Origin: Thermoanaerobaculia bacterium
GTDB taxonomy: Bacteria > Acidobacteriota > Thermoanaerobaculia > Multivoradales > JAIOJS01
Direction of reading: 5' to 3'
Length of the DNA: 64,000 nucleotides
NCBI GenBank assembly: GCA_030429235.1
Contig: JAUIDB010000010.1
Coordinates: 13,334-77,333 of the forward strand
Made by a program: the position numbers and the translations under genes. The first letter of the stretch is position 1. Each line of letters begins with the position of its first letter. Positions 3,935-43,119 of this stretch are shown in pieces. The notes below the pieces were generated by a model. It was not told the origin of the DNA. It was given only the letters and a program-made list of their open reading frames with translations, and made no database searches.

Positions 3935-3950
3935 TGGCACGTCAGTTGCT
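3935..3950 (+). promoter_or_regulatory. Sigma54 (RpoN) -24/-12 promoter, TGGCACG-N4-TTGCT, oriented toward the CDS at 4073.
   Basis: Reads cacgTGGCACgtcagTTGCTcc, an exact GG-N10-GC arrangement. It lies about 120 nt upstream of the ATG at 4073. Confidence 0.45.
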
Positions 3951-4072: not shown

Positions 4073-5392
4073 ATGTTCAATCTCAAGAATCTAGTCATCG
4101 CGACGATTTGCCTTCTGGCGATCCCGGCTGTGCTGCCGGCGCAGTGGGTAATCAACGGTTGGATGCCGGCGGGCACGGTACCGATCGACTACCCGCCCAG
4201 TCCGTTCTTTGCTGCAAGCTACCAGGGACACCTGTTCGTAATGGATGGAGTGACCGCTTGGGTTGGAGAGGTAGACCCCTCGACCGGCAACATCCTGAGC
4301 TGGGAGGAAACCACGGCACCCGATCGGACCCAGTACCGAGCAGCTTTGGTGCCCACGAGTGCGGCCGTCGTGGGTGACTACATCGTGATACCCCATGAAC
4401 CCGAGTCGCTGGTCGCTCGGTTCAACAGCGACGGATCGATCGACGGGGACTGGCTTCCAGCCCCCGGACTCGTCAATGCAAGAGCCACGACCGGTGTTGG
4501 AGCGACCGCCGTGTCAGGCTCCTTCCTCTACGTCGTGGGGGGACATGGGCCCGGCTCGGCCCTGGGACGTGTAGAGGGAACTCTCGTCAACCAGGACGGC
4601 ACCCTGGCTCCCTGGCAAGACCTTGGATCCCTACCGGCCCCCGTGATCCTCCACGACCCAAGGGCTGATGTGATCGATGGCTTCCTCTACGTGTTCGGAG
4701 GAGAAGGAACGTCGCCTTCGGGCTCCTTGACCCACTCTCGGAACGTTCACCGGGCCCAGATTCAGCCAGACGGTACGCTTGGATCCTGGGTCAAGGTCGG
4801 TGACATGCTGCAGGCTCGCCCGCATGCCGGCCACCTGCTTGCAAACGGATCCGTCCATGTGGTTGCCGGCGGTGTTCACTCCTACATGACAAGTTCGGTG
4901 GAGTCAGCGACTCTTGCCGAGTTTGGGGAGACCGGGAGTCATATCCAGAACGCTCCCTTGCCCTACTCTCCGGGCCTCAACGAACTGGCTACGGCCGTAG
5001 TGGGGTCTTGGGGTTACGTCGTTGGTGGGAACACCCGACCGTTCGGTGGTGGTTTGGTTGCGGATGTTCTCGTCGCTCAGCTCGCACCCCTTTGCTCGGC
5101 CGATGGCGGCCCGTTTCATTTCGTTCGTCGACGTGGGAAGCCCAGGACAGAGTCTGCATCCTGGGTCGGATGCGGGGGCTCAGGGACGCTGCGGATCCTC
5201 AACAGCGGCACTTCTTCCGCGGTTGTTGTGCTCAACGGGGGCGAAGTAGCAGGGCCACAAGACTTCAACCCCAACGTGCAGGTCCTCGAGATTCCGATTC
5301 TGGACCTACCGACCGAGAACACCTTGGAGGTGACCATGAGGGGAGCTCCGGGTTCGAGTCTGCAGATCTCGTTCATAGCAGCAGGCTCTTGA
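4073..5392 (+). CDS. Secreted protein with Kelch-like beta-propeller blades (hypothetical).
   Basis: AAGGGGA RBS and a signal peptide MFNLKNLVIATICLLAIPAVLPA. Repeated FLYVVGGHG and FLYVFGGEG blade motifs. Confidence 0.6.
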   Translation: MFNLKNLVIATICLLAIPAVLPAQWVINGWMPAGTVPIDYPPSPFFAASYQGHLFVMDGVTAWVGEVDPSTGNILSWEETTAPDRTQYRAALVPTSAAVVGDYIVIPHEPESLVARFNSDGSIDGDWLPAPGLVNARATTGVGATAVSGSFLYVVGGHGPGSALGRVEGTLVNQDGTLAPWQDLGSLPAPVILHDPRADVIDGFLYVFGGEGTSPSGSLTHSRNVHRAQIQPDGTLGSWVKVGDMLQARPHAGHLLANGSVHVVAGGVHSYMTSSVESATLAEFGETGSHIQNAPLPYSPGLNELATAVVGSWGYVVGGNTRPFGGGLVADVLVAQLAPLCSADGGPFHFVRRRGKPRTESASWVGCGGSGTLRILNSGTSSAVVVLNGGEVAGPQDFNPNVQVLEIPILDLPTENTLEVTMRGAPGSSLQISFIAAGS

Positions 5393-5685: not shown

Positions 5686-6804
5686 CTAGCCCGTCCTTGG
5701 CGACCTACGCGATGGTGAGATCGCGGCTGAGCTTGCCCGGAAGAAGATCAACGCCGAGAGTAGCGGGCCACCGAGTATGAGCATGAATCCAGAGAACGCC
5801 CTCACAGCCACGTTCTGAATACTGAGGTAGTAGTCCACGAGATGACTCGAGTATTGCCAGGCGTATTGGACCGTGGCGATCGCGATGAGGGCTGAGATAG
5901 CCGGTGCGGCATACCGACGGAGCCACTCTTGGCGTTTGAAGAATGCCGAGATGGGAGCCACTAGAACGGAAAACACCACCAGCATTACGGTCAAGGCCAC
6001 AGAAGCCCGAATCCAGAGGTTCATAACGCCCTTCTGGGTCAACAGGTCTCTCATTCGCTGGCTTTTGGCATGGTCTCGTGCTAGCTTGCCATCCAGGTCT
6101 CGAATGTTGACGTCAGCTCCCATGGCGATTAGTACTTCCGCTACCTGTGTGTAGTCCTCTCTGACCGCGGCCATCAACGGTGTAGTGCCGTCCTGTGCAG
6201 TCGCATCGACTTCGAGGTGTCTTCCGCTGTCTCCGATCTCGGTGAGGATTTCATGGTGACCCCGGGCCGCTACAAACCACAGTGGCGCCGCACCTTCAGG
6301 CCCACCTTTCAGGTTCAGGTTCGCACCGCCGCTGACGAGTTCCCGGAAGACCTCCAGTCGGCCCCGTTTGGCAGCAATGACGAGGGGTGTCTCTCCAAGG
6401 CTGTTTCTCGTGTCGATGTCTGGCATCCTGTCTTGAGCTAGGAGGAGCCTCAGGGTCTGCGTATCTGCGTTTCTTGCGGCTACGTGTAGGACAGTGTCTC
6501 CTGGGGCCATTTCCACAGAGTCGCCTGCTCCCTCAGGGACACGAAGAAAGGCGTCGGCTCCGTTGGCAAGAAGAAGTCGTGCTAATCCGGTACGGCTTCG
6601 GGAGATCGCCCAGAGCAGGGCTGAGATGCCCTCTCCATCCAGTTGGTTCGCATCGCCGGTGTTGGCCAGAGCCGAGAAGAGTTCCTTGACGTTCCCGGAC
6701 TTGGCTGCGGAGACCAGTTTCCCCTCGTTCGCCGCCGCTTGGCTGCTTGCCACGGTAGTCGCAGCCAGCACAAGAGCCACTTTTCCAGCTATACCGAGAT
6801 TCAC
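5686..6804 (-). CDS. Ankyrin-repeat protein with an N-terminal signal peptide and C-terminal transmembrane helices.
   Basis: About 6-7 ANK repeats (GISALLWAI..LLLANGAD, TVLHVAARNADTQTLRLLL, TPLVIAAKRGRLEVFRELV, TPLMAAVREDYTQVAEVLIAMGADVN), followed by 3 hydrophobic helices. Confidence 0.8.
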   Translation of the reverse strand: MNLGIAGKVALVLAATTVASSQAAANEGKLVSAAKSGNVKELFSALANTGDANQLDGEGISALLWAISRSRTGLARLLLANGADAFLRVPEGAGDSVEMAPGDTVLHVAARNADTQTLRLLLAQDRMPDIDTRNSLGETPLVIAAKRGRLEVFRELVSGGANLNLKGGPEGAAPLWFVAARGHHEILTEIGDSGRHLEVDATAQDGTTPLMAAVREDYTQVAEVLIAMGADVNIRDLDGKLARDHAKSQRMRDLLTQKGVMNLWIRASVALTVMLVVFSVLVAPISAFFKRQEWLRRYAAPAISALIAIATVQYAWQYSSHLVDYYLSIQNVAVRAFSGFMLILGGPLLSALIFFRASSAAISPSRRSPRTG

Positions 6805-7619
6805 CGAGACTCACCCTTCCGAGACAGTTCGAGTTGAATTGATTGGAGTGACTCCCCAGTTCCTGCTAGGAAGCGAGATACCGCCTGCTTTTTTTCTGGC
6901 CGGAGATCTAGGGTTGCCGGACAGAGCCTCTTCTTCGTACAGCTGATACGGGATCGTTCCCACTCGTCTATGGATTGCGCCAACTCGAGCAGTCGAAGCG
7001 CTACGGTTTCTCGCTGTCGTTCGTAGCTATCGATTCTGTGAGACAGGGTGTTCTCGGTCCGTTCGGTTGTCTCCCGGACCGCAGTGAGTTCCTTTTTCGT
7101 CTCATAGAGCTGTTCGAGTGTTTCGTTGGCTTTGGCTTGCAGGTCCACAAGTTCGTCCTCGACGGTTTGTATGTGCGCCCCGACCCCAGCGAGTAGAAGC
7201 TCGAAACTCGTACGGATTTCCGAGCGCACTTCGTCGTCGTAGTTCTGAAGCTGCCCCTCCACTTGACGAAAGACCTTCTCTCGATGATCGTTAAAGGCGC
7301 TGGGAATTTGGTCTACGTACTGCATCACCTGCTCGTTGAGTTCGAGGTGTCTACGCACCAGATCGTCGTGTTCACTCCGAAGTACTGATAGCTCGACTTC
7401 GTGAATCCGGAGTTCCTTCCGGAGGTCGGCCGTCAACTCGTTCGCTCGCTGAAGCTGATCTGAACAGCCCTGGCCTTCGGACCTGCATCTCTTGAGATCC
7501 CTTTCGCAGCAGGCTGCGGTGCCACTGATAAGAAAGACGAGCAGTAGCCGAGTCGGCAACGAGCGGCTCCGGCGGTGGAGGCTCCTTTCAGATCGAACCA
7601 TCATGGATTCTTTGTCCAT
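6801..7619 (-). CDS. Coiled-coil protein, possibly a lipoprotein (hypothetical).
   Basis: Signal/lipobox-like LLLVFLISGTAAC, then heptad-rich Glu/Leu/Arg sequence. A 4-nt overlap with the downstream ankyrin gene indicates an operon. Confidence 0.55.
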   Translation of the reverse strand: MDKESMMVRSERSLHRRSRSLPTRLLLVFLISGTAACCERDLKRCRSEGQGCSDQLQRANELTADLRKELRIHEVELSVLRSEHDDLVRRHLELNEQVMQYVDQIPSAFNDHREKVFRQVEGQLQNYDDEVRSEIRTSFELLLAGVGAHIQTVEDELVDLQAKANETLEQLYETKKELTAVRETTERTENTLSHRIDSYERQRETVALRLLELAQSIDEWERSRISCTKKRLCPATLDLRPEKKQAVSRFLAGTGESLQSIQLELSRKGESR

Positions 7620-7820
7620 CCGATCTCCTTCTTCCGAGGCCTTCTCGGGCGGCCTTCACAAAACAACTCGTGGGGCCATGGATCTGCAAGGCCCGGGCCA
7701 AGCCCTCCCGGAGGCCTGGGTATGTCTGGACGCGATTTCCGGCGCGACCCCGAGTGCAAGCAGGTGAAGAGACTGGCTGTGGACGTTGCTAAGCTAGTGT
7801 CTACCCGTGTCTCTCGGAAG

Positions 7821-10577
7821 ATGCGCGCTCCTGACACAATAGGGCCAGCAATGAACAGAGACGGGGATCAGGGTGTCCCATCGGTTCCGAGCCCGGCCCT
7901 AGCAGCCGGAGCCACCTTCCGCTCCCGCTACGAGATCGTCGAACGGCTCGGTCAGGGCGGCTACGCCGAGGTGTACCGGGCTCAGGATCTAGAGATCGAT
8001 CGCGAGGTCGCCTTGAAGATCCTGCGGCCGGATCGGACGAGTGACGCTTCGGTACGCCGGCTGAAGCGGGAGGCGGCGGTGGCCCGGGATGTGGAGAGTC
8101 CTCATCTGGTTCGGGTCTTCGAGGTGGATACGTCGACTCTGCCGGCGTTTCTCACCATGGAGGTGGTGGAGGGGGGCAGCCTGCTGGAGGAGATCGCGGC
8201 GGGCCCGGTGCCGATCGAGCGGGTGCTGGAGGTGGCGCGGCAGGTACTCCTCGGGTTGGAAGCGCTGCACGGAATGGGGATCCTGCACCGGGACATCAAG
8301 CCCAGCAACGTGATGATCACGTCGGACGGCCAGGTGAAGCTGGCCGACTTTGGGATGGTCCACCAACTCTCGCGAGAGTCGACGCGGCTGACCGAGTCTT
8401 CGGCCATCGTGGGGACGATCGACTACGTGGCTCCGGAGACGGTTCTCGGCGATCCGCCCGACGGTCGAGCCGATCTCTACGGGCTCGGGTTGTTGCTGTT
8501 CGAGATGCTCACGGGGAGCCTGCCCTTCGGTGACTCCCCTTCGGCTCTCGGCGCTGCGTTGGAGCGCCTGCACCGATCACCGCCTCGGGTGGTACCGCTC
8601 CGACCAGAGACCCCCCGTTGGCTAGAGAAGGTCGTCCTGAGGCTCCTCGAACGACGTCCGGAAGACCGTTTCGCGAGTGCCGAGGCCGTGCGCCGCGCCT
8701 TGCGCGAGCATCGTGTGCCGCGATCTCGTCGGGTGTGGCGACGGAACGCCTGGCTGGCGGCGGGGATCGTGCTGGCCAGTGTCGCGAGCGCCTGGGTGCT
8801 GGCGAGGATAGGGGGATCGATCCCGGTCCTCTCGCACATCACGGCGCAGGAACCGGAGCCGGGCCTCTTCGGGCTCTCGGCTGACGGTGAGGTGCTGTGG
8901 CATCGGCCCGACCTGAGGTCCGGTTGGTGGGTCACTGCCCAGTCGAGTTCGGGGGGCGGACCGATTCCCCTCGGGTTGCGGGCCGGGGCCGGGCCACAGG
9001 ATCTGGAGGTGCTGCACCAGTTGCTGGTTCTCGATCCCACCAGCGGGGAGACGGTGGACCGAGTGACGCTGCCTTCGGCGGGAGATGAGTTTCCCGGTTT
9101 TGCACCGCGGTTCCAGCCGGAACTCCACGCGGTCGACATCGATGGAGATGGCGGCGAGGAGGTGGTGGTCACCTACTTTCACACCTACTGGCCCTCGTAC
9201 ACCGTGGTCTATGAACCCAGATGGCGCCGGGCGCGGGTGGCGCTGTTGGCGGCGGGGCACCACCGCCCGGTCGGCGTGGCCGACGTGGATTCTGACGGCA
9301 ACAACGAACTGATCTTCCTGGGAGTTTCGAACCGCATGGGTTGGTACGCTGGGCTGGCCGCAGTTTCGATGGTGCCTCCGATCAACCGGCCGGGAGAGGC
9401 GACGCTGAGTACGGCGGCGGCCACGACGCCGGACGGCTACTTCCTCAGGCGATGGCGGGGCATGGTTTGGTACGCGCTCGCTCCGCCCGGGATCTGGTGC
9501 TCCGGGATCGGCACCTGTACCGAAGTGGACCCCGATGCTCGTGAGATTCGCCTGGAACCCCCCGGCGGCTCGCAAGTGCGCTACTCGTTCGACGGGTACC
9601 TAGTGGAAGACCGGGTCTCCGGCCTCGATTCGGCGGAGCGGAACCGCCGCCGGGGTCGCGCCTACAAGCACCTGGAGGAAGCGGGGCGGCTGCTCGATTC
9701 GCGGCTCGAAGATTGGGGCGAGGAGGAGGCCGAGCGAGCGGTGGAGTTGGCTCGTACGGTCCGCGACCGCTTCCTTACCGACTGGGCCCTGCGCACGCTG
9801 GGGAGGATCGTGATCGAGCGCGGACGAATCGAGGAAGGAGAGCAGATCTTCGAACAACTCTCGGTCGACTCTCCAGCTGCTACCAGCGCCGCCTTCGAGG
9901 CCGCCCACGCGCTGCAATTGGCTGGCCGCCCGGATCGCTCTCTCGATTGGTACCCGCGGGCCTTCGGCGCCGCTGGGGACTGGGGACCGGGCCGCAGTCG
10001 CGACCGGCTGGTTCGGGGGTTGTTGTTGGCCTACAGCGAGATCGGTGACTACGAAGGAGCACAGAAGGCCCTCGACCGGTTCAGCAATCCCGGGCAGATC
10101 ACGTCGCGAATCGACACGTATCTGAGGCCCTACGTCGCCTGGCGGATGGAGGATCGATCCGTAGCCCCCATGCCCTACCGCGCGGGGAACCCCGATCTGG
10201 AGGTCTATTGGAGCCTCGAGCAGGCGCTGGCTCACGGTACCGAACTCGAAGTCCTTTGGGAACGGGTGCAACTCGCCATGGACCAGAGTTCGGAGGAATT
10301 GCCTTTGCTGCAGAATCTGGCCGGTGAGATCCAATGGAAGATGGGTCGCCGTGCGGAGGCTTTGGTCTGGTTCGAGAGGGCTTTCGCGGGAGGTGAAGCG
10401 GAGCTCGAGCGGAGTATCTCGGTCCGTGCCCACTTCGATCTGATCGTCAGCCGACTGCTGCGGGGAGTCCGCGACGCAGGCCTCGAGACCAGAAGCAGAG
10501 AGATCGCGAGCGTGGCGGAAGCCTGGGATTCTCATCAGCGGCAGCTGCGTCATCTCATGTCTGTCAGAGGGCAGTAA
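7821..10577 (+). CDS. Hanks-type Ser/Thr protein kinase with a TM segment and a large extracytoplasmic FG-GAP-like beta-propeller plus TPR region.
   Basis: Kinase motifs GQGGYAEV, ALK, HRDIKPSNV, DFG and GTIDYVAPE. TM segment AWLAAGIVLASVASAWVL. Repeats VDIDGDGGEEVVV and ADVDSDGNNELIF. The start is chosen at the first ATG that does not overlap the upstream divergent gene (alternatives 7722 and 7851). Confidence 0.85.
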   Translation: MRAPDTIGPAMNRDGDQGVPSVPSPALAAGATFRSRYEIVERLGQGGYAEVYRAQDLEIDREVALKILRPDRTSDASVRRLKREAAVARDVESPHLVRVFEVDTSTLPAFLTMEVVEGGSLLEEIAAGPVPIERVLEVARQVLLGLEALHGMGILHRDIKPSNVMITSDGQVKLADFGMVHQLSRESTRLTESSAIVGTIDYVAPETVLGDPPDGRADLYGLGLLLFEMLTGSLPFGDSPSALGAALERLHRSPPRVVPLRPETPRWLEKVVLRLLERRPEDRFASAEAVRRALREHRVPRSRRVWRRNAWLAAGIVLASVASAWVLARIGGSIPVLSHITAQEPEPGLFGLSADGEVLWHRPDLRSGWWVTAQSSSGGGPIPLGLRAGAGPQDLEVLHQLLVLDPTSGETVDRVTLPSAGDEFPGFAPRFQPELHAVDIDGDGGEEVVVTYFHTYWPSYTVVYEPRWRRARVALLAAGHHRPVGVADVDSDGNNELIFLGVSNRMGWYAGLAAVSMVPPINRPGEATLSTAAATTPDGYFLRRWRGMVWYALAPPGIWCSGIGTCTEVDPDAREIRLEPPGGSQVRYSFDGYLVEDRVSGLDSAERNRRRGRAYKHLEEAGRLLDSRLEDWGEEEAERAVELARTVRDRFLTDWALRTLGRIVIERGRIEEGEQIFEQLSVDSPAATSAAFEAAHALQLAGRPDRSLDWYPRAFGAAGDWGPGRSRDRLVRGLLLAYSEIGDYEGAQKALDRFSNPGQITSRIDTYLRPYVAWRMEDRSVAPMPYRAGNPDLEVYWSLEQALAHGTELEVLWERVQLAMDQSSEELPLLQNLAGEIQWKMGRRAEALVWFERAFAGGEAELERSISVRAHFDLIVSRLLRGVRDAGLETRSREIASVAEAWDSHQRQLRHLMSVRGQ

Positions 10578-10638
10578 GTAGCGACTGTGCTATTCTGAGC
10601 GCACTTTCCGATCCGAGAAGAAGGGGGAGGCCTCACGC

Positions 10639-12414
10639 ATGCTGCGTTTTGTCGCCCGGAACGAGGGCCAGGAGCGTCGATTTCCGATCGCGGCCGATGG
10701 CGTGTGGACCGTAGGCTCGGCGATCGAGTGCGAACTCTCTGTCCCCTTCGACGGGGTCTCGCGGCGGCATGCCAGCCTCGAGCGCCGGGGAAGCCGAGTC
10801 TGGCTCACGGATTGTGGTTCCAAGAACGGCCTCAGGGTGGAGGGGCGGGTCGAGGCGCAGATCGAACTGCTGCCAGGGATTCGGGTAGACCTCGGTGGCA
10901 CGGTGGTCGAGATCGAAGAGGCAGCGTCGTCGGATACACGATTCGCGGTCGAGCTGCGGCGTTCGTCGAGCGTGGCTTCTCGACTGCGCACCAGTACGGC
11001 GGGAGCGATGGCCGGCGACGGACGTTCTTCACCCGCTGCCGCGCTCGCCTTCGTTCGGCGGTTCGAGCGAGCGTCGCTCCAACCGGGCTCGGAACTCTGG
11101 TCGCGACTCGTCGCCGAGACTCTGGAGATCCTCGAGGCCGAAACCGTGGCGGTGCTGCAGCGGGTTCCCGGGGAGCCTCGCGAGGTGTTGGAACAGTGCT
11201 GGGGCAGGCACCGGGTGCCAGGAGCCGAGGTAGAGGATCCGTGGAGCGCGGCCCAGCTCTCGGCCGAACTGGAAGGGGAATCGGCCAGAATCGTGGCCAT
11301 CCTGGGCCAGGGGGCCAAGGTCGATCGCTGGAAGGAGGACTTCTTCTCCTACCTGGCGACCCGCTGGCAGGAGCAGCGTCACGACCCTCCCGCTCCTCGC
11401 GCCCAGCCGGCCCAGGTCGAGCCGGAACGAGGCCCCGTGGTTCTCGGGCGCTCCGCCGCCATGGTAGAGGTCGAAACGCTGGCTCGGGCCGCGGCCGAGA
11501 GTGGTCTCAACGTCGTGCTCCTCGGCGAGACGGGGACCGGCAAGGAGGTTCTCTCACGCTTCATCCATCGTCTGCGTGCCACCGGGAAGGGTGAGCTGGT
11601 AGCGATCAACTGCGCTGCGATTCCCTCCGAACTCCTCGAAGCCGAACTCTTTGGCGTTGCCAGCCGAGTGGCGACCGGCGTAGATCCCCGCGAGGGGCTC
11701 TTCGTGCGCGCCCACGGGGGAACCCTTCTCCTGGACGAGATTGGCGAGATGCCCTACACGCTGCAGGCGAAACTGCTGCGAGCGCTCCAGGAGCGGGAGG
11801 TCATGCCGGTGGGAGGGCGACGGCCGATGCCGGTCGATCTTCGAGTCATCTCGACGACGCACCGTCCCCTGGCTCGGCTCGTGGCCGAGAAGAAGTTTCG
11901 CGCTGATCTCTACTACCGACTCCGCGGACTCGAGATCTGGCTTCCACCCCTCCGAGAGCGACTCGAAGACATTCCGGAGTTCGCCACTCTCTTTGCCCAG
12001 AGAGCAGCCCGTGCTTCGGGAAAGCGGGTCCGCGGGATCACCGAGCGTGCGCTGCGGCTTCTTACCTGCCACCGCTGGCCCGGCAACGTGCGGGAACTCG
12101 AGACCGACATGGAACGCGCTGTGGCGTTGTGTGCCGACGGAGGCAGCATCGACTCGCGGCTCTTCTCCCACCTGGATCCAGTCGCGGGACGACCTAGTTC
12201 CGTCTCGGTGCTCGAAGCCCCGACCTCGAGGGCCGTGGCGCCCAAGGCTGGCCACTCTACGGTCACACTGCGGGAGGAACTCGACGCTACCGAGCGCGAG
12301 CGAATCCGACGAGAGCTGGCGCTTTCGGGCGGCAACAAGTCGGAGGCCGCTCGAAGGCTCGGGGTGACCTGGAATGGGCTGGTGATGAAGATGAAGCGAT
12401 TGGGGTTACGGTAG
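10639..12414 (+). CDS. Sigma54-dependent transcriptional activator (bacterial enhancer-binding protein) with an N-terminal FHA domain.
   Basis: GGGGAGG RBS. FHA motif (GSAIECEL..GVSRRHASLERRGSRVWLTDCGSKNGLRVEG). AAA+ sigma54 interaction domain (LLGETGTGKEV, GAFTGA-like region). C-terminal Fis-type HTH (KSEAARRLGVTWNGLVMKMKRLGL). Confidence 0.9.
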   Translation: MLRFVARNEGQERRFPIAADGVWTVGSAIECELSVPFDGVSRRHASLERRGSRVWLTDCGSKNGLRVEGRVEAQIELLPGIRVDLGGTVVEIEEAASSDTRFAVELRRSSSVASRLRTSTAGAMAGDGRSSPAAALAFVRRFERASLQPGSELWSRLVAETLEILEAETVAVLQRVPGEPREVLEQCWGRHRVPGAEVEDPWSAAQLSAELEGESARIVAILGQGAKVDRWKEDFFSYLATRWQEQRHDPPAPRAQPAQVEPERGPVVLGRSAAMVEVETLARAAAESGLNVVLLGETGTGKEVLSRFIHRLRATGKGELVAINCAAIPSELLEAELFGVASRVATGVDPREGLFVRAHGGTLLLDEIGEMPYTLQAKLLRALQEREVMPVGGRRPMPVDLRVISTTHRPLARLVAEKKFRADLYYRLRGLEIWLPPLRERLEDIPEFATLFAQRAARASGKRVRGITERALRLLTCHRWPGNVRELETDMERAVALCADGGSIDSRLFSHLDPVAGRPSSVSVLEAPTSRAVAPKAGHSTVTLREELDATERERIRRELALSGGNKSEAARRLGVTWNGLVMKMKRLGLR

Positions 12415-12466: not shown

Positions 12467-13345
12467 TTATGCCACCAGCAAAGCCTTGGCCAGCGCCGCT
12501 CGCAGCTTTCCGAACACCACGGCGAGGTACATCAGGAGGAGCCCGATCGCCACCGTGGTTAGCCAGAGGCCGGGGAAGATCCACCAGGGCACGAACCACT
12601 CGAGCGAACCGAGGACCACGAGAGGGCGGTCGAAGATCAGCTGGGCGAAGGGACCGATGAAGCAGGAGAGGGCCAGACTGAGCAGGGTGACCGAGACGAC
12701 GAAGGTGAGAATGCCGAGTGGCAGGGAGAGCAGGCAGTAGAGCAGGGTCTTCCAGGTGAGGGAGTCGGTGAGCCAGTACCTGGCCTTGGGGAGCCAGCCC
12801 GTTTCGGTGGGCAGCGAGACCGGCCGTCGTGGCATGCGCACGCCGATCAACGCCTCGAGCAGACGCCCCTCTACCAATCCCAGCATGCGCAGGGACATGG
12901 CGAACCCGATGAAGAACGGCACGCCGAAGATGAGGATGCCGAACCCCAGGGACATCGACAGGCCGACCACCGCCCAGGTGAAGTAGAAGAGCCCGGTCAG
13001 GAGACCGAATAGCATGAGGAAGAGGGCCCCGTAGGCTTTGGGATCGATCAGCATGCCGAGGGTTCCGCTGAGGAAACTGACCACCGGCGCCGGGGTTTCG
13101 AGGGCCTTGGAGACCGTGATCTCGGTGGCCCGGTAGGAGGCGGCGACCTCCTGGGGCGACCCAAAACCGGCGATCGCACGGTCGACCAGCTCCTGCTCGG
13201 TGAGGTCACTCGCGGAAGAAGAACGCTCACTGCGCAGGAACTCGTCGACGTCGTAGAGAGCGTCCTGAACCATCGCAGGGTCGCTGGCGGTGAGTGCGAG
13301 GCGAATGGCATTGCGGTACTGTTCGGTGGTCTTGATACGAGTCAT
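12467..13345 (-). CDS. PadR-associated membrane protein (DUF1700/HAAS-like N-terminal helical domain plus multi-TM).
   Basis: The N-terminus TEQYRNAIRLALTAS..VQDALYDVDEFL resembles DUF1700. 5-6 TM helices follow. ATGA start/stop overlap with the upstream PadR gene. Confidence 0.6.
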   Translation of the reverse strand: MTRIKTTEQYRNAIRLALTASDPAMVQDALYDVDEFLRSERSSSASDLTEQELVDRAIAGFGSPQEVAASYRATEITVSKALETPAPVVSFLSGTLGMLIDPKAYGALFLMLFGLLTGLFYFTWAVVGLSMSLGFGILIFGVPFFIGFAMSLRMLGLVEGRLLEALIGVRMPRRPVSLPTETGWLPKARYWLTDSLTWKTLLYCLLSLPLGILTFVVSVTLLSLALSCFIGPFAQLIFDRPLVVLGSLEWFVPWWIFPGLWLTTVAIGLLLMYLAVVFGKLRAALAKALLVA

Positions 13346-13830
13346 GAGTCGGTCTCCTGAGTGGTGTCGTGCTGGGAGGCTTCGACCGCCCGACGGATCT
13401 GGTCACCGCCGTCGAGGACCCGGTCGACGAAGTTTCTGGTATCGGTCCAGGCCGCTTCGATCAGCTCGAGGGCCTCGTGGCCGAGCGGGGTTACCTGGTA
13501 GTAGCGCCTAGGGGGGCCCGAATCGGAGGGCTCGAGGGAGCTGCTCAACAGCCCCTCGCGTTCGAGCGATCGCAGCACCGGGTAGAGCGTCCCCTGCTTC
13601 ATCGGCAGGGGAGCGCGGGTAACCTGCTCTAGGATCTTGGACAGCTGGTAGCCGTACATCGGCTGCTCGGCCCGGGCCAGCAGGGCGAGCAGGGTCACAC
13701 TGACCGAACCGGCATTGAGCTGACGTTGGATCTTGGCCACGGCGGGCGGGTAGTCGGTTTCGTGCATAGAGGGTTCCCCGTGGGTCGGAGTGGCGGCACC
13801 TGGCTGTGCCTCGGTCTCTAGTACGATCAT
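13342..13830 (-). CDS. PadR family transcriptional regulator.
   Basis: YGYQLSKILEQ...GTLYPVLRSLEREGLL winged-helix motif. The true start is probably the internal ATG near 13767, which has a GGGGAA RBS. Confidence 0.75.
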   Translation of the reverse strand: MIVLETEAQPGAATPTHGEPSMHETDYPPAVAKIQRQLNAGSVSVTLLALLARAEQPMYGYQLSKILEQVTRAPLPMKQGTLYPVLRSLEREGLLSSSLEPSDSGPPRRYYQVTPLGHEALELIEAAWTDTRNFVDRVLDGGDQIRRAVEASQHDTTQETDS

Positions 13831-13835
13831 ACTAG

Positions 13836-13848
13836 TAGAAGGTTTCTA
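13836..13848. promoter_or_regulatory. AT-rich inverted repeat TAGAAggtTTCTA, flanked by ACTAGT and AGCTAG. Candidate PadR operator.
   Basis: A perfect 5-bp-arm palindrome in the padR upstream region. It is an AT-rich island in GC-rich DNA. Confidence 0.25.
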
Positions 13849-14029
13849 ATAGCTAGTCGGCAATAGGGTGGACCAGGGTTGCCGCCTACGGGCTGATCCC
13901 GTCCGCGCGGGTTCTGAGAGTCCCAGAGCAGCGTCGCCCCTGTCTGCCAACTCGGCGAGAGGACGGGCGACAGTAGGCAGTTCGACTCTGGTAGAGTGTC
14001 GATGAGGCGACAGTAGTGAGGATTCACAT

Positions 14030-16819
14030 ATGAGGAACAACGGCAGGGTGCAATCTCGACGCCGGTTCCTTCACAGATTGGGGATTGCGTGGGCGCTGGC
14101 TGGACTGCTCGCCAGTGCGACCGGACTCAGGGCGGGTGAGTCGGCGCCTGCGGCGATGGCGGCTGATCTCGGCGAGATTCCAGGGTGGACGTTTCTCGAT
14201 GCGGCGCCCGGGGGCTTTCAGGAACTCGACGGGATCGTCTACTTCTTTGCGCATGACGGTGTTCACGGGCAGGAACTCTGGCGAACCGATCTGACGGAGG
14301 CCGGTACCTGGATGGTCGAGGACATCTGTCCTGGCTTCTGTCACGGCATGACCAATGGCCCGCCGATGGTTCAGAGCGGTGGGGCGCTGTATTTCTTCGC
14401 CGACGACGGGGGGTCCGGGGGGGAGCTGTGGACTTCGCGAGGTACGGCCGAGACAACTCGGATCGTTCGGGACTTGCAGGCCGGCCCGGCCTCCTCCGCT
14501 TGTGGTCAGTTGATCGAGTTCGGAGGCCAGGTCGTGTTCGGTGCTGACGACGGCATCCATGGCTGCGAACTCTGGGTCAAACCCTCTTCGTGGGCGGGAG
14601 TCCAGCTGCTGGTCGATGCAGTTCCCGGCGCCGACTCCGGGTTCTCGTCCGGTTATCGCCGTCTCTTTCCGCTCGACGATCAGCTTCTCTTCTGGTCGCA
14701 GGACTCTCTCTGGACGACGGACGGTACTCCGGCTGGAACCGAGAAGGTCACCGAGGTCGTGGCGAACCTCGACGTGCCTTGGTTTCACGACAACGGCCCA
14801 CGGGCCTTCGACGGCAGGTTGTTTTTTCAAGGCTGGGACGCAGTACATGGCTGGGAACTGTGGGCCACCGACGGAACCGCAGCGGGTACGGGTCTGGTTG
14901 CGGACCTGGTCGCCGGTAGCGGCAGCAGTTCTCCGGACGACTTCGTGGTGCACGCCAGCCAACTCTGGTTCGCAGCCCGGGGCGAGGACCAGGACGGGGA
15001 ACTGTGGCGGAGCGATGGGACCTCGACGGGTACTGCGTTTGTCGCCGATGCGGACTGGGGTCCCCTGGGGAGTACCCCCGCTGGCGTCCTCTACGTGGTG
15101 CACAACGGAGTCCAGAGCGAGCTAAGGATCGCCGACGGGAGTCAGGTGAACACACTGGTCAGCGTAGAGGATGTTTACTTCTACTTCCTCTATCCTCGTC
15201 GACAGCTCGATGGTGGGGTCTTCCTGGCGCTGAACGCGGGGCAAACCGGTCCGGAGCCCTGGATCTCCGAAGGCACTCCCGAGACCACGCGGCTTCTCGC
15301 CGACATCTACCAGGGCGAGGAGGGTTCCATGTTCCTTCCTCTGGACACCGCAATCCAGCTCTCGACGGGAGAGATCCTGTTCAAGGCCTATTCCCCCGAG
15401 ATCGACTACTCGCCCTGGGTCAGCGATCAGACGACGGCTGGCACCCGCCGAATCAAGCGGATCGACGATCAAGTTTCGGCCGGGTATCCGGGACGACGAC
15501 TCCTCTATTCCAGCTTGGCCCCGATCGGACCACGATGCCTGACGAGTCGATACTCTCTGGAGTACAACCGCGAGGAGGCGTGGTCCTCGGCCGGAGACCC
15601 AGCGACGGTGGCTAGGATTCCCGTCCACCAGGGGCCTGGCGCCACGGTGCTTCAGGCAGATCCCGGACCTACTCCTGCCACTCGTTCCCGCGCCATTTTG
15701 AGAGTCCACGGGGAAGAGGGACCCAGCCTGTGGGGCACGGACGGTACGGTTCAGGGAACCGAGGAGATCACCGCGGCTTTCGGTGCGACGAGTCTGGGGC
15801 TCGAACGTTTCGTGGCGACTCCAGATCGCGTCTGGATCCAGAACCACGATCGGGTCTGGAGTACCGATGGAACCCTGGCCGGAACGGTGTGGGTTCCCTC
15901 CTGGAACCAGGTCAGAGACGCTGCCGTCGTCTCTGGCCGCACCTACCTGGCGCTCGGCAACAGCGGGACCGGAGTAGAACTCTGGCTTCAGCACCAAGGG
16001 GCAGCCCCGGTTCCGGTTCGCGACATCGAGCCAGGACCCGATAGTTCCACGCCATCGTGGCTGACGACCGGTTCCGAACCGAACCTCGGGGTCTTCTTCT
16101 TTGCCAGTACTACAGAGACTGGTCGCGAGCCCTGGTTCTCGGATGGAACTGCGGAGGGAACCTACCCGCTCGGGGACATCTTTCCTGGCGAGGAAGACTC
16201 TCGCGAGTTGACTGAGGAGCCCAATTCCGGCGGGGCCGTGGGGGCCTTCCTGGGGTCGACGCTCGTGTTCGCGGCCGATGACGGAGTCCACGGCAACGAA
16301 CTGTGGGCTTCGGATGGGAGTCCCGAGAGTGCGACTCTGCTTCTCGACCTCGTGCCGGGCAACGTGGGAAGCGAACCCGCTTGGTTTACCACCTTCGAGG
16401 ATCGGGTCTACTTCGTGGCCTCCACTCTGGAGCACGGACGAGAGCTCTGGCGGACCGACGGCACTCCGGAAGGCACCGAGATCGTGTTGGATCTGTTCCC
16501 GGGACGGCGTTCCGCTCTGCCCCACGATCTCTTGGTACGTGGTGACACTCTCTTCCTGGTCGCCGCCGACCCCGCCCACGGTTCCGAATTGTGGAGGCTC
16601 GACTCCGAGGGCCTCGAACTGCACCAGGACATCAATCCAGGGCCCGACTCGTCGTCACCGAGCTGGCTGGCGCTCGGTCAAGATCGACTCTGGTTCATGG
16701 CGACGGACGGTGTTCACGGGTTTGAACTCTGGAGCCTTCCGTTTGGGCTACTCTTTGCAGACGGCTTCGAATCTGGGGACGTCACCGCCTGGGGAGAAGC
16801 CGGGTCGGTCGTTCGCTAG
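14030..16819 (+). CDS. Large secreted ELWxxDGT-repeat beta-propeller protein with a Tat-like signal and the C-terminal FADGFESGDVTAW tail.
   Basis: N-terminal SRRRFLHRLG has twin-arginine character. There are 12 or more repeats such as ELWRTDGTPEGT, ELWATDGTAAGT and EPWFSDGTAEGT. The last 23 aa are LLFADGFESGDVTAWGEAGSVVR. Confidence 0.8.
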   Translation: MRNNGRVQSRRRFLHRLGIAWALAGLLASATGLRAGESAPAAMAADLGEIPGWTFLDAAPGGFQELDGIVYFFAHDGVHGQELWRTDLTEAGTWMVEDICPGFCHGMTNGPPMVQSGGALYFFADDGGSGGELWTSRGTAETTRIVRDLQAGPASSACGQLIEFGGQVVFGADDGIHGCELWVKPSSWAGVQLLVDAVPGADSGFSSGYRRLFPLDDQLLFWSQDSLWTTDGTPAGTEKVTEVVANLDVPWFHDNGPRAFDGRLFFQGWDAVHGWELWATDGTAAGTGLVADLVAGSGSSSPDDFVVHASQLWFAARGEDQDGELWRSDGTSTGTAFVADADWGPLGSTPAGVLYVVHNGVQSELRIADGSQVNTLVSVEDVYFYFLYPRRQLDGGVFLALNAGQTGPEPWISEGTPETTRLLADIYQGEEGSMFLPLDTAIQLSTGEILFKAYSPEIDYSPWVSDQTTAGTRRIKRIDDQVSAGYPGRRLLYSSLAPIGPRCLTSRYSLEYNREEAWSSAGDPATVARIPVHQGPGATVLQADPGPTPATRSRAILRVHGEEGPSLWGTDGTVQGTEEITAAFGATSLGLERFVATPDRVWIQNHDRVWSTDGTLAGTVWVPSWNQVRDAAVVSGRTYLALGNSGTGVELWLQHQGAAPVPVRDIEPGPDSSTPSWLTTGSEPNLGVFFFASTTETGREPWFSDGTAEGTYPLGDIFPGEEDSRELTEEPNSGGAVGAFLGSTLVFAADDGVHGNELWASDGSPESATLLLDLVPGNVGSEPAWFTTFEDRVYFVASTLEHGRELWRTDGTPEGTEIVLDLFPGRRSALPHDLLVRGDTLFLVAADPAHGSELWRLDSEGLELHQDINPGPDSSSPSWLALGQDRLWFMATDGVHGFELWSLPFGLLFADGFESGDVTAWGEAGSVVR

Positions 16820-37493: not shown

Positions 37494-38888
37494 CTAGGTC
37501 TGGTCGTCCTGCTCCGGTCGGGCAATGCCGAGACTGTTCATCTTCTGATGGAGATGGGTCCTCTGCAGTTCGAGCAGGCGGGCGGCAGCGGCCACGTTCC
37601 AGCCCGTGCTGGCGAGGGCGCGTCGGATGTGGCGGGCCTCGGCGATCTCCTTGAACCGGCGAAAGGGGAGTACGGGGCCGTCGAAGGGGTCGTCGCCATC
37701 GGCTCCGCTCTCAGAGGTCCGGGGATCGAGCATCTCGACCGGTAGCTGCTCGGGAGTGACGGGGTCGGTGCCAAAGACGACGAGCCGCTCGGTCAGGTTT
37801 TCGAGTTCGCGAACGTTGCCGGGCCACGGGTACTGTTCGAGGATCGGATAGACGGCCTCGGTGGCGGCGAGTTGGCGCACGCGGTGGCGAGTCCAGGCCC
37901 GACGGAGAAAGTGGTCGAAGAGGAGCCGGATGTCTCCGGAGCGCTGGCGCAGCGGAGGGACTTCGATCGGCAGGTGGGCGAGGCGGAAGTACAGGTCCTG
38001 TCGGAAGGACTGGTTCCGGATGCCCTCCTCCAGTTGGGCGTGGGTGGCGGCGAGGACCCGCACGTCGACCTCTCGGTCGCGGGTCTCGCCGATGCGGCGG
38101 ACGCGGCCGTCCTCGAGAACCCTGAGGAGGCGGGACTGTAACCGGTAGTCCATGTCGCCGATCTCGTCGAGGAAGAGGGTCCCGCCGTGAGCCTCTTCGA
38201 AAAGGCCCCGTTTGTCGCTGGCGGCGCCGGTGAACGCTCCCTTGACGTGGCCGAAGAGCTCGTCCTCGACCAGATCCTGCGGGATCGCGGCGCAGTTGAG
38301 TTTGATGAAGGGTTGGCGCGCCCGTGGGCTGCCGCGATGGATGGCGTCGGCCACGAGCTCCTTGCCGGTACCACTCTCGCCGAGGATGAGGACCCGACCC
38401 TCGGTCGGGGCCGCTTTGGCGATCGCCTCGCGGAGGGCCAGCATGGCCGGCGACTCGCCGATCAGTTCCGACTGGCCGCGCAGCTCGGACTCGAGGTCCT
38501 GGACCCGCGTTCTCAGGCTGGAGTGTTCGAGGGTGTTCTCGATCGATCGGCGGAGGCGCTCGGTACTGAACGGCTTCTCGATGAAGTCGTGGACGCCGAG
38601 CTTGAGGGCCTCGACCGTCTCGGCGATCGAGGCCTCCCCGGAAACGATGATCGTCGGCGGGAGACGATCCGACTCGGCCAGGCGTCGGATCAACTCGACG
38701 CCGCTCAGGCCGGGCAAACGCACGTCGACCAGCATCAGGCCCGGAGGGTTGTCGGGTCGGGAGTCGAGCCATTCCAGGGCCGCCTCGGCGGTGTCGGTGG
38801 CCGCGGCCCGGTGTCCCGCCTCTTTGAGCTGGAAGAGCAGGTTGGCGCGAATCCTCGGATCGTCCTCGACGACGAGAACCTCGATCAT
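37494..38888 (-). CDS. NtrC-family sigma54-dependent response regulator (REC + AAA+ + Fis HTH).
   Basis: REC (VLVVEDD...DVRLPG), ESGTGKE, GAFTGA, and C-terminal HTH. Confidence 0.9.
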   Translation of the reverse strand: MIEVLVVEDDPRIRANLLFQLKEAGHRAAATDTAEAALEWLDSRPDNPPGLMLVDVRLPGLSGVELIRRLAESDRLPPTIIVSGEASIAETVEALKLGVHDFIEKPFSTERLRRSIENTLEHSSLRTRVQDLESELRGQSELIGESPAMLALREAIAKAAPTEGRVLILGESGTGKELVADAIHRGSPRARQPFIKLNCAAIPQDLVEDELFGHVKGAFTGAASDKRGLFEEAHGGTLFLDEIGDMDYRLQSRLLRVLEDGRVRRIGETRDREVDVRVLAATHAQLEEGIRNQSFRQDLYFRLAHLPIEVPPLRQRSGDIRLLFDHFLRRAWTRHRVRQLAATEAVYPILEQYPWPGNVRELENLTERLVVFGTDPVTPEQLPVEMLDPRTSESGADGDDPFDGPVLPFRRFKEIAEARHIRRALASTGWNVAAAARLLELQRTHLHQKMNSLGIARPEQDDQT

Positions 38889-40114
38889 TCGGTACTCCGT
38901 GCGGACGGCGCCTCGGGTTCGGGCGGCGGCAGGGTGAGCTGGAAGGTGGCGCCGCCGGTCGAGCTCGAAACCAGTCGAAGGTCGCCACCGTGGTCGAGGA
39001 GGATCTTCTTGGAGATCGCCAGACCGAGTCCCATCCCCTCGCCGACGTTCCGGGTCGTCGTGTAGGGCTGGAAGAGGCTGTCACTCACCTGGGCGGCGAT
39101 GCCGGGGCCGTCATCGGCCACGTCGACCTGCACCTCGTGGTCGAGGCAGCGAACCTCCAGGGTCACCGACACCGAGCCCGGGGCCGCGGCGGCGGAACTG
39201 TTATCCCAGAGGTTCACCAGCACTTGACGCATCATGTCGCGGTCGATGTTGACGAAAGCGGGTCCGCTGGTGACGCACTGGAGGGAGAGGTTGTCCCAGG
39301 CATCCTGGTAGATCTCGGCGAGTTCGGCCAGGAGACTCGACAGGTCGACGCGCTGTAGCTTCGGCCGCGGCAGCCGGGCGAAGGAGCTGAAGCGGTGGGT
39401 GAACTCGGTGAGTCGATCCAGTTCCTGCCGGGCCCCGTCGAGGAACTCGTCGATCTCGGCGGCAGTGGCGCGAGGGTTCTTCTGCAGTGTGTTGCCCAGG
39501 CGAGCCAATTCGAGGCGCAAACCGGTGATGGGAGAGCGCATCTCGTGGGCGTGGCGTCGCGCTGCTTCCTGCCAGGCGGACAGGTTTTCGAGCATGGCCA
39601 GTCGTTGGCGGTCACCGGCCATGCGGCGCGAGGTCTCCTCGATCATGGCTGCGATCCTACCGAGGACGCCCCGCCCGCTCTCGCCCGTGTCGAGGACCGG
39701 TCGGCCTTCGGCGAGCCGACCGAGCGACTCTCGGAGCCGCTCGAGGCGGCGCTCGCGGTTCGTCTGGCGCCAAACCAGGCCGCCGGCTACCACCAGGAGG
39801 CAGAGGGCGAAGAGGGTGAGCCCGAGTGCCTCGGATCGCGCCACCAGGTCGGCTCGACTGCGCTCCAAGACCTGGAGTCGGTGCAGCGTCGATTCGATCC
39901 GATCGAATCGTTCGCGGTACTCGGCCGCTCGCTCCGGATCCAGCTCCGCCAGCCGCTTCTGGTCGTCGAGCGAGCCGGACAGTCGATCGAGTACCTCGGG
40001 GTGGGCGCCGAAGGCGAAGGAAGCCTGCGAGAGCTGTCGCTGTAGGACCTGAAAGAGGAGGGCCGCGAGCAGGATGGCTCCGAGCGTGGCGACGATCGGG
40101 GTGCGAAGCTTCAT
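38885..40114 (-). CDS. Sensor histidine kinase (2 TM, HisKA, HATPase_c).
   Basis: The internal ATG gives MKLRTPIVATLGAILLAALL. HEMRSPITGL H-box. DDGPGI...GLGLAI G-boxes. A 4-nt overlap with the RR gene. Confidence 0.85.
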   Translation of the reverse strand: MKLRTPIVATLGAILLAALLFQVLQRQLSQASFAFGAHPEVLDRLSGSLDDQKRLAELDPERAAEYRERFDRIESTLHRLQVLERSRADLVARSEALGLTLFALCLLVVAGGLVWRQTNRERRLERLRESLGRLAEGRPVLDTGESGRGVLGRIAAMIEETSRRMAGDRQRLAMLENLSAWQEAARRHAHEMRSPITGLRLELARLGNTLQKNPRATAAEIDEFLDGARQELDRLTEFTHRFSSFARLPRPKLQRVDLSSLLAELAEIYQDAWDNLSLQCVTSGPAFVNIDRDMMRQVLVNLWDNSSAAAAPGSVSVTLEVRCLDHEVQVDVADDGPGIAAQVSDSLFQPYTTTRNVGEGMGLGLAISKKILLDHGGDLRLVSSSTGGATFQLTLPPPEPEAPSARSTE

Positions 40115-40800
40115 GGGCGCGGTGCCTTTTCGAGGCGCAGTGTCCATTCCAGATGCACCATGGGTCGACGGCGGATCGAGGTGCTGAGGAGTCCGTCGAA
40201 GACGCGGTCGAGAGAGCTCTCGCTGCGCTCGAGACGATCCTTGGACTCCGATTCGGCCGTACGACTGGAACGTACCGACTCGGCAAACCAACGCTGGGTC
40301 TCGCGCTGTTCGGCCGCCGAGAAGGGAACCACCTGGAGGCGCACCCGGAGGGCGGGAGGCGGGTCGTGGGCAAGAGCAGCCGCGCACAGTGGGACCTCGA
40401 GGTCGGACCACCAGCCCCGGAGGTCGGCGGGGTCGGCCAGGGTTCGGCGGGTGGTGCTGTCCGGAGTTCGGAAGGTGGTGACCTGAAACTGCTCCTCCCA
40501 GAGCTCGTACCGAATCTGGATCGTGGTCCGGGCCAGGGAGGCCTTGCGGTTCAGGGCCAACTCGAACCTGAAGTGCGTGGTCAGACCGGTCTGGAGGTGT
40601 CGCTCGATCTCGGGGTCATCCAGGATTTCGGGCAGCTGCGAGAGGAGCACACACTCCTCATTGGACCGAGAGAGCCGCGGCGGGTCGGCGGCCAAGGAGG
40701 AGCCCAAACAGAGGATCAAGCAGAGACCCCAGAATCCCCGAGTCGCGGGGCGACGAGGCAGGACCGACGACGGGGGCACCCGGTAGAGCAAAGGTCGCAC
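40111..40800 (-). CDS. Periplasmic DUF4390-like protein encoded immediately upstream of the HK-NtrC pair.
   Basis: About 229 aa with a signal peptide. A 4-nt overlap with the HK start. The size and context fit my recollection of DUF4390. The family assignment is from memory, not a search. Confidence 0.5.
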   Translation of the reverse strand: MRPLLYRVPPSSVLPRRPATRGFWGLCLILCLGSSLAADPPRLSRSNEECVLLSQLPEILDDPEIERHLQTGLTTHFRFELALNRKASLARTTIQIRYELWEEQFQVTTFRTPDSTTRRTLADPADLRGWWSDLEVPLCAAALAHDPPPALRVRLQVVPFSAAEQRETQRWFAESVRSSRTAESESKDRLERSESSLDRVFDGLLSTSIRRRPMVHLEWTLRLEKAPRP

Positions 40801-43103: not shown

Positions 43104-43119
43104 AGCAATGACCTTGCCA
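43104..43119 (-). promoter_or_regulatory. Sigma54 -24/-12 promoter TGGCAA-N5-TTGCT heading the OMP -> POTRA-OMP -> DUF4390 -> HK -> NtrC operon.
   Basis: The minus strand reads tTGGCAAggtcaTTGCTg with exact GG-N10-GC spacing. It lies about 45 nt upstream of the ATG at 43060. Confidence 0.4.

Follow-up and report, generated by a model that had tools for sequence, protein, structure and literature searches.

Several bacterial systems join a Hanks-type Ser/Thr kinase to a regulator with an FHA domain. Enhancer-binding proteins (EBPs) of this kind were reportedly described in Myxococcus xanthus by Jelsbak, Givskov and Kaiser in 2005 (PNAS 102:3010; cited in PMC11980068): they combine an FHA input domain, a sigma54-type AAA+ domain and a helix-turn-helix (HTH), and control by Hanks kinases is presumed. 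The question of which Hanks kinase serves which FHA-EBP has stood open since then. Receptor Hanks kinases that act on an FHA-containing regulator are known as PknH-EmbR (Mycobacterium tuberculosis), PknB/PknG-GarA and PpkA-Fha1. The locus described here lies in a 64,000-nucleotide stretch of contig JAUIDB010000010.1 from a Thermoanaerobaculia bacterium (the whole stretch is called the window below), where the gene of a receptor Ser/Thr kinase is directly followed by that of an FHA-domain EBP.

The EBP has the domain set of the Myxococcus proteins, and the locus resembles PknH-EmbR in having neighbouring genes and transcription as its output. EmbR, however, is a DNA binder of the SARP family and not an AAA+ EBP, and the FHA domains of EmbR, GarA and the Fha1 type keep the arginine of the GR motif, which is missing here. 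TyrR, DhaR, HupR and VpsR likewise combine the AAA+ core of an EBP with an L1 loop (the sigma54-contacting loop) that departs from the canonical form; there, the loop has degenerated or been lost and the promoters served are of the sigma70 type, whereas in the present family the variant loop is highly conserved and the genes lie beside sigma54-type promoters. NorR and NifA (PMC2941729; NifA structure 9qq6) also have a GAF-type domain directly ahead of the AAA+ domain, and in NorR it is reported to repress the ATPase by targeting the GAFTGA surface. Unlike theirs, the GAF-like domain of the window EBP is reduced to four strands, matches GAF domains only weakly and is preceded by an FHA domain. 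In Bdellovibrio DgcB (FHA-GGDEF; 6hbz, 6hc0, 6hc1), a phosphorylated disordered tail bound by the FHA domain switches on the output, which offers a model for the Ser/Thr-rich linker of the window EBP; the output of DgcB, unlike that of the EBP, is a diguanylate cyclase, and its FHA domain is canonical.

Compared with the canonical FHA-EBPs sampled, the family of the window EBP, named xxATGV family here after its L1 loop, differs by G-[S/A/T] in place of GR, by the loop itself, by the extra GAF-like domain and by a dedicated adjacent kinase gene. No description of an xxATGV clade of EBPs or of arginine-less FHA-EBPs was found in the searchable literature, the coverage of which is incomplete.

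A conserved kinase-EBP pair

The two genes and their parts, all on the plus strand, are as follows.

7851..10577, plus: receptor Hanks-type Ser/Thr kinase, 908 aa (Pfam Pkinase; full-length orthologues adjoining EBP orthologues)
7929..8693, plus: cytoplasmic kinase domain (Pfam; orthologue alignment)
8745..8813, plus: one predicted transmembrane segment, NAWLAAGIVLASVASAWVLARIG (hydropathy scan and translation)
8814..10574, plus: extracytoplasmic sensor region of ~590 aa, an FG-GAP-like part followed by a TPR-like helical part (sub-threshold Pfam; conserved in orthologues)
10578..10638, plus: intergenic gap of 61 nt with the Shine-Dalgarno (SD)-like GGGGGAGG (sequence scan)
10639..12414, plus: EBP-type regulator, 591 aa, composed of FHA, disordered linker, GAF-like domain, AAA+ and HTH_8
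10639..10923, plus: FHA domain (Pfam; alignment with MDC1; family tally; AlphaFold2 and Foldseek)
10942..11019, plus: disordered Ser/Thr-rich linker, residues 102-127, including RTSTAG (predicted local distance difference test, pLDDT, < 50)
11026..11388, plus: GAF-like domain, residues 130-250, helix-helix, four strands, helix (AlphaFold2 pLDDT 84.6)
11443..12159, plus: AAA+ domain of the sigma54-interaction type with its lid (Pfam, alignments)
11665..11682, plus: L1 loop RVATGV replacing GAFTGA (F to A), with one residue fewer after the loop (translation; alignments; family tally)
12283..12402, plus: Fis-type HTH_8 DNA-binding domain (Pfam)

An orthologous kinase adjoins the EBP orthologue in 16 of 17 informative related loci (loci are given as L with a number) and, in addition, in the distant branch L064, where the EBP consists of FHA, AAA+ and HTH without the middle domain and the kinase lies immediately downstream. 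Six long contigs were examined, and each has a Pkinase gene next to that of the EBP; an all-against-all BLAST identified no third gene common to the neighbourhoods. The same comparison shows that orthology of the kinases at these loci extends from end to end and takes in the ectodomain, with 37-38% identity across 866-905 aa. A DNA-pattern scan of metagenomes for RVATGVDPR returned 77 loci, ~21 with EBPs of the family, the rest being chance GC-rich matches. Among the informative metagenome loci, the kinase is upstream in nine and downstream in one; another, L159, shows no kinase within 11.8 kb upstream of the EBP, its downstream side not being sequenced. The order of the two genes is inverted in L083, with the pair still together. 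Judged from this distribution, the two genes are a conserved, co-inherited signalling cassette of Acidobacteriota. Because the cassette is dedicated and co-inherited, comparative genomics makes a functional coupling of kinase and FHA-EBP very likely.

In L084 (4240..6947), the kinase is divided between two genes, one for the kinase part (342 aa) and one for the sensor (493 aa), which could be a real split, a frameshift or an assembly error. L086 has two extra genes between kinase and EBP (6074..6798), a small antitoxin-like one and one for a PIN-domain toxin, and the pair has stayed together all the same.

A sequence-only reading of this stretch had placed a Hanks Ser/Thr kinase directly 5' of an FHA-domain EBP with a gap of 61 nt, and both points hold. 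The length of 1000 aa given for the kinase does not: it is merely that of the longest open reading frame (ORF; GTG 7575..10577), the extension of which overlaps the divergent gene starting at 7619. The gene caller's start at 7722 gives 951 aa, and ATG 7821, the choice of the earlier reader and a possible start, gives 918 aa. ATG 7851 (908 aa) is the most likely start, because of the N-termini of the homologues and of a leader, TGACACAATA, common to the closest relative, P0258. This relative has 908 aa as well, an equivalent start with TGACACAATA just 5' of it and an ectodomain 62% identical; alignments of the orthologues begin ~23 residues ahead of FRSRYEIVE.

The Pfam match to Pkinase covers residues 37-291 (E 2e-49), and the catalytic motifs are intact (GQGGYAEV, ALK, HRDIKPSN, DFG, APE). 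In an alignment of six orthologous kinases, the Gly-rich loop, catalytic Lys, alphaC Glu, HRD, DFG and APE are invariant, as is a Thr in the activation loop (ESTRLTESS, pattern [DE][ST]RxT). The only hydrophobic segment, 19-23 aa long and strongly so, lies C-terminal to the kinase domain. The FG-GAP/TPR sensor proposed earlier can be kept as an extracytoplasmic region, its two names having sub-threshold Pfam scores only (FG-GAP_3, 18.5 bits vs. a cut-off of 26.9; TPR_12, 29.8 vs. 30.1). Two DxDxDG-type motifs of this ectodomain are kept among the orthologues, and its C-terminal half is helical. Protein searches with the ectodomain found only two proteins with a single-sequence query and only two with a profile. 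Neither a terminator nor a sigma70-like promoter was found in the 61-nt gap before the EBP gene, which carries the SD-like GGGGGAGG; hence, kinase and EBP are probably co-transcribed.

Pfam recognizes four domains in the EBP: FHA (PF00498, residues 23-86, E 2.6e-10), which bears out the input domain named earlier, Sigma54_activat (PF00158, 269-433, E 6e-54), AAA_lid_14 and HTH_8 (549-588, E 1e-7). The AAA+ domain matches ZraR with an E-value of 4e-59, and all ATPase motifs are intact (Walker A GETGTGKE, Walker B LLLDE, the arginines of FRADLYYRL). The family comprises at least 120 homologue clusters with 39-48% identity, and the homologues with names come from metagenome-assembled genomes of Thermoanaerobaculia or Vicinamibacteria (Acidobacteriota). 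A search with the N-terminal part is dominated by generic FHA matches and gives no clean family size.

The sequence-only reading had missed the linker and the GAF-like domain between FHA and AAA+. For the latter, no Pfam match was obtained; the best folds in the PDB are GAF domains, with a weak match (TM 0.5-0.56, E 0.01-0.05). The linkers of the EBP family are rich in Ser and Thr (19% vs. 10% protein-wide), and [DE]T is present in 82 of 119 of them. The linker is thus worth naming as a candidate phospho-acceptor region.

Sigma54-type promoters beside the cassette and candidate targets

Promoter elements of the -24/-12 type were scored by a weighted consensus requiring GG and GC. In 9 of 17 family loci, the 350 nt that follow the stop codon of the EBP gene contain a sense-strand element with a score of at least 19; among random 350-nt windows drawn from these loci, the share with such a score is 3.2% (binomial p 7e-10). 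Three of the loci, L002, L111 and L152, are related; counted once, they leave 6 of 15 loci at a score of at least 19. Examples are TGGCACCAGCCTTGCT in L122, TGGCATCTCTTTTGCT in L150, TGGCAGAACCCTTGCT in L152 and TGGCACCGCCAATGCT in L127; the element of L002 scores 18. On the other side of the cassette (480 nt, of which ~450 nt are upstream and 30 nt belong to the first gene, both strands), a score of 19 was reached in 1 of 14 regions, that of the window itself. In relatives, each element is followed by the start of a new ORF; the distances measured are ~30-120 nt, and a purine-rich SD-like stretch usually precedes the ORF. Most of the readable N-termini of these ORFs, read by eye, are signal-peptide-, lipoprotein- or membrane-like. 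In L122, a lipoprotein and then an ankyrin-repeat protein follow the EBP behind TGGCACCAGCCTTGCT, and in the three related loci a homologous "LQPTDPGQNGQTR" protein stands behind the element. Such an adjacent arrangement looks as expected of genuine sigma54 activators, not of TyrR-type homologues.

Some observations on these flanking regions can be added. A secreted family with the N-terminal motif LQPTDPGQNGQTRSQNFL stands behind a sigma54-type promoter in one subclade (L002, 11875..13557; L111, ~5190 onward; L152, ~1880 onward), the L002 copy having no Pfam match on record. A small zinc-ribbon gene of L142, convergent in orientation, bears TGGCACGGGCAATGCA. A de novo search for a shared activating sequence gave the recurrent words GCCAAKC and CTGCGCA, which were rejected as inseparable from the GC-rich background.

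In the window, the gene after the EBP (12467..13345, minus strand) is convergent. Because of this, the targets in the window are likely the lipoprotein-ankyrin operon upstream of the kinase, a Kelch-like gene farther upstream, or both. The features concerned are these.

7685..7700, minus: sigma54-type -24/-12 element TGGCCCGGGCCTTGCA, score 20.5, in the divergent intergenic region upstream of the kinase
5686..7619, minus: divergent two-gene operon of a 272-aa lipoprotein-like protein (6801..7619) and a 372-aa ankyrin-repeat protein (5686..6804)
3935..3950, plus: consensus sigma54 promoter TGGCACGTCAGTTGCT, 122 nt upstream of ATG 4073
4073..5392, plus: 439-aa secreted protein with Kelch-like repeats, behind TGGCACGTCAGTTGCT

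The element TGGCCCGGGCCTTGCA lies 66-81 nt upstream of ATG 7619, which has AAGGAG 5 nt before it. Sites scoring at least 20 occur in the family loci at a frequency of ~0.019 per kb per strand. The operon is of the same kind as the target in L122, the two ankyrin proteins being 26% identical (E 3e-13). The 272-aa protein showed no similarity to the L122 lipoprotein, either in a tblastn of the full protein against the family loci or in a BLASTP against the first 60 residues of the latter. The site at 7700..7685 on the minus strand, which of all such sites in the window is the one nearest to the cassette, and the lipoprotein-ankyrin operon are put forward as a candidate cis target.

The sequence-only reading had pointed instead to a sequence-perfect sigma54 promoter 4 kb upstream, at 3935..3950. 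The match is real: TGGCACGTCAGTTGCT is exact, and it is the sole exact match in the window. That this promoter, driving the 439-aa secreted protein, is the target of the EBP is possible but rather doubtful. In 8-mers common to promoter-upstream regions beside orthologous EBPs, the 200 nt preceding it come within the top 1% of the window; much of this signal stems from a 14-mer also found in L135, although this 14-mer is marginal (~95th percentile of shuffles). Moreover, the gene adjoining the cassette in L148, which has a weak -24/-12 site and the words GCCAAGC/CTGCGCG upstream, encodes the same kind of C-terminal domain as the 439-aa protein. In the orthologous loci, on the other hand, the promoter directly abuts the cassette, whereas in the window three genes intervene between it and the 3935 site. 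The window also holds a second, canonical EBP, and more are likely elsewhere in the genome.

The 439-aa protein has no Pfam match. It ends in a beta-rich domain of ~90 aa (GCGGSGTLRILNSGTSSAVVVLNGGEV), which is 45% identical in the otherwise unrelated secreted protein of L148 (664..2088); the domain may be a lineage-specific module.

The FHA pocket and the sigma54-contact loop

The N-terminal domain of the EBP is certain, as far as structure prediction goes, to adopt the FHA beta-sandwich fold: pLDDT values are 94-98, and Foldseek gives target-normalised TM values of 0.75-0.88 to FhaA, GarA/OdhI, CT664 and DgcB, with EmbR also among the best. To our knowledge, every characterised FHA domain has an arginine in contact with the phosphate, as R70 in Rad53, R312 in EmbR and R58 in MDC1. 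In the EBP, the canonical GR position, opposite G-R of MDC1 in the alignment, is G26-S27 (10714..10719). Among the 119 homologues with a residue at the position of the arginine, 59 have Ser, 52 Ala, 7 Thr, one Phe and none Arg. The other pocket residues are S41, H44, S61 and N63, present in 119 of 119, and R42, present in 113 of 119. An earlier verdict that the phosphothreonine-binding residues are present, GVSRRHASL seeming to provide an intact GR...S..H pattern, is overturned by these data: this segment covers the SxxH half only, the arginine is replaced by Ser27, and the pocket is not intact.

At the end of the FHA domain, a motif x-[S/T]-[S/A]-[D/E] (SSSD, STSD, DTSD) is conserved in most family members (residues 96-99 of the EBP, 10924..10935). 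Its role may be that of a structural cap or of a phospho-acceptor kept in the family.

A domain of this kind might act independently of phosphate, as an interaction module or as an autoinhibitory "pseudo-FHA" like those of YscD and EssC; the kinase would then phosphorylate the linker or the GAF-like domain directly, or kinase and EBP would interact constitutively. The family-wide absence of the arginine speaks for it, and Pfam scores Yop-YscD_cpl besides FHA on this domain, while FHA-EBPs outside the family keep GR. The other phosphate-contacting residues (S41, R42, S61), however, are invariant or nearly so, which is unexpected for an unused pocket, and the closest structural matches are FHA domains that bind phosphothreonine. 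A phosphate-independent role is possible, though on balance rather unlikely. The pocket, with every phosphate ligand but the arginine, is a natural experiment on target recognition by FHA domains.

The second departure concerns the L1 loop. RVATGV aligns position for position with the GAFTGA of ZraR, of NifA and of the window's own NtrC-type EBP. The xxATGV loop is present in 119 of 120 family members and GAFTGA in none (RVATGV 101, RIATGV 8, GAATGV 3, GVATGV 3, KVATGV 2, and RTATGV, RYATGV and RAANGG once each). A345 and G347 are invariant, and the loop, one of the most conserved stretches of the EBP, is evidently under strong constraint. A scan of genome contigs with the full EBP alignment picked up generic EBP patterns and yielded 79 unrelated EBPs and one family member, L064; used as a control set for GAFTGA and GR, the generic EBPs show GAFTGA (30), GSFTGA (8) and GAYTGA (2), among others. 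In FHA-EBPs of other lineages (Polyangiaceae L052, deltaproteobacterial L062, acidobacterial L050 and L077), the loop is GAFTGA or GSFTGA in all four, and GR is kept in L050, L062 and L052, three of the four being readable there. The second EBP of the window (37494..38888, minus strand), of REC-AAA+-HTH build and NtrC type, has a perfect GAFTGA. Since this protein keeps GAFTGA, and the outside FHA-EBPs keep GAFTGA or GSFTGA and, where readable, GR, the two departures (G-[S/A/T] in the FHA domain, xxATGV in the loop) are specific to the clade, where they travel with the adjacent kinase even in L064 (GS, QVATGV). By these two family-wide departures, the family can be set apart as a distinct EBP subfamily.

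The name sigma54 activator, given to the protein earlier, is justified as far as the AAA+ core, the ATPase motifs and the HTH_8 domain go, and not as regards the loop, where only conservative variants of GAFTGA (Tyr for Phe, Ser for Thr) would be expected; as GAFTGA is missing, the function cannot be assumed from the Pfam match. Francke et al. state the phenylalanine at position 3 of GAFTGA to be replaceable only by Tyr, "other replacements inactive", and homologues with a defective GAFTGA, such as TyrR, DhaR and HupR, to be sigma70-dependent (PMC3162934). The EBP might accordingly be a sigma54-independent protein of the TyrR, DhaR, HupR or VpsR type, acting as activator or repressor at sigma70 promoters under control of the kinase. 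Its loop has Ala at the Phe position and is one residue shorter, and VpsR, which is structurally solved (7v2b), is a detectable relative. The loop of the known sigma54-independent homologues, however, is degenerate or deleted, whereas it is highly conserved in the xxATGV family; the promoters adjacent to the EBP gene are strongly enriched in the -24/-12 type, and the ATPase motifs are all intact. The sigma54-independent alternative is therefore regarded as improbable. Because the -24/-12 arrangement beside the EBP fits genuine sigma54 activators, the EBP probably depends on sigma54 despite its variant loop.

The weakest alternative, an incidental adjacency of members of two unrelated pathways, can draw on the abundance of Hanks kinases in these genomes, with extra kinases near the pair in L083 and L086, and is very hard to reconcile with the full-length orthology of kinases with a divergent ectodomain in 16 of 17 loci among otherwise varying neighbours; chance adjacency of the two genes is ruled out by synteny.

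The explanation that accounts best for the whole, and that is considered fairly probable, is that of a receptor kinase and FHA-EBP cassette acting on adjacent sigma54-type promoters. An envelope or extracellular cue would activate the kinase, which would autophosphorylate its activation loop at [DE][ST]RxT. The next step would be docking of the FHA domain on a phosphorylated site in the kinase, phosphorylation of the EBP linker by the kinase, or both. This would relieve a repression exerted by the N-terminal FHA and GAF-like domains or drive assembly of the AAA+ hexamer, and the AAA+ ring would activate the sigma54-type promoters beside the cassette. PknH-EmbR, PknB-GarA and the FHA-tail switch of DgcB provide precedents for such switching.

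Several points weigh against this cassette model. All the evidence is computational and comes from uncultured genomes. In the absence of the GR arginine, canonical reading of phosphothreonine by the FHA domain may be weakened or lost, and no strictly conserved phospho-acceptor was found in the linkers of the family. Ala at position 3 of the loop would fall among the replacements classed as inactive for sigma54 activation (PMC3162934). The window has no -24/-12 site after the EBP gene, and the 7700..7685 site on the minus strand has one mismatch in its -24 element. In the closest relative, L164/L165, the neighbours differ, and no equivalent sigma54-like site or operon exists upstream of the kinase. 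No robust shared upstream activating sequence could be defined in the promoter-upstream regions of the family loci. Finally, no rpoN (RpoN box) was found in the 64-kb window; the organism nevertheless very probably has sigma54, judging by the canonical GAFTGA EBP and the perfect sigma54 promoter that occur in the window.

A broader proposal, attractive but tentative, is that the xxATGV clade consists of natural sigma54 activators that lack the GAFTGA phenylalanine and are controlled, via an FHA domain without the arginine, by a receptor Ser/Thr kinase dedicated to them. Should the clade indeed activate sigma54, the rule of an obligatory Phe or Tyr would have to be revised, and the censuses of Acidobacteriota regulons would be incomplete. 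A 2025 regulon survey retained only sequences containing GAFTGA (PMC12316311), and GAFTGA filters in genome surveys (PMC3162934, PMC12316311) would drop the whole clade. If the proposal is right, the sigma54-contact loop and the phospho-reader pocket would each have a second solution that had so far gone unrecognised. As to the question of which kinase serves which FHA-EBP, co-inheritance points here to cognate pairs, often with a likely target promoter and gene; these would form the first genomically defined set of cognate Ser/Thr kinase-EBP pairs with adjacent targets.

Other genes and sites in the window

The convergent gene behind the EBP, which carries the Pfam domains Sensor and HAAS, is preceded on its strand by the gene of a PadR-family regulator (13342..13830, minus strand). 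A PadR gene, with weak similarity, is also found nearby in L083. Beyond the PadR pair, a 929-aa ORF (14030..16819, plus strand) has a signal-peptide-like N-terminus and no Pfam match; no sigma54-like site was found upstream of it, in 13800..14060.

Beside the NtrC-type EBP lies a histidine kinase gene (38885..40411, minus strand); together they make up a two-component system of the classical kind. A near-consensus sigma54-type site, TGGCAAGGTCATTGCT, with a score of 21 and one mismatch, is present at 43119..43104 on the minus strand, inside overlapping long ORFs on both strands.

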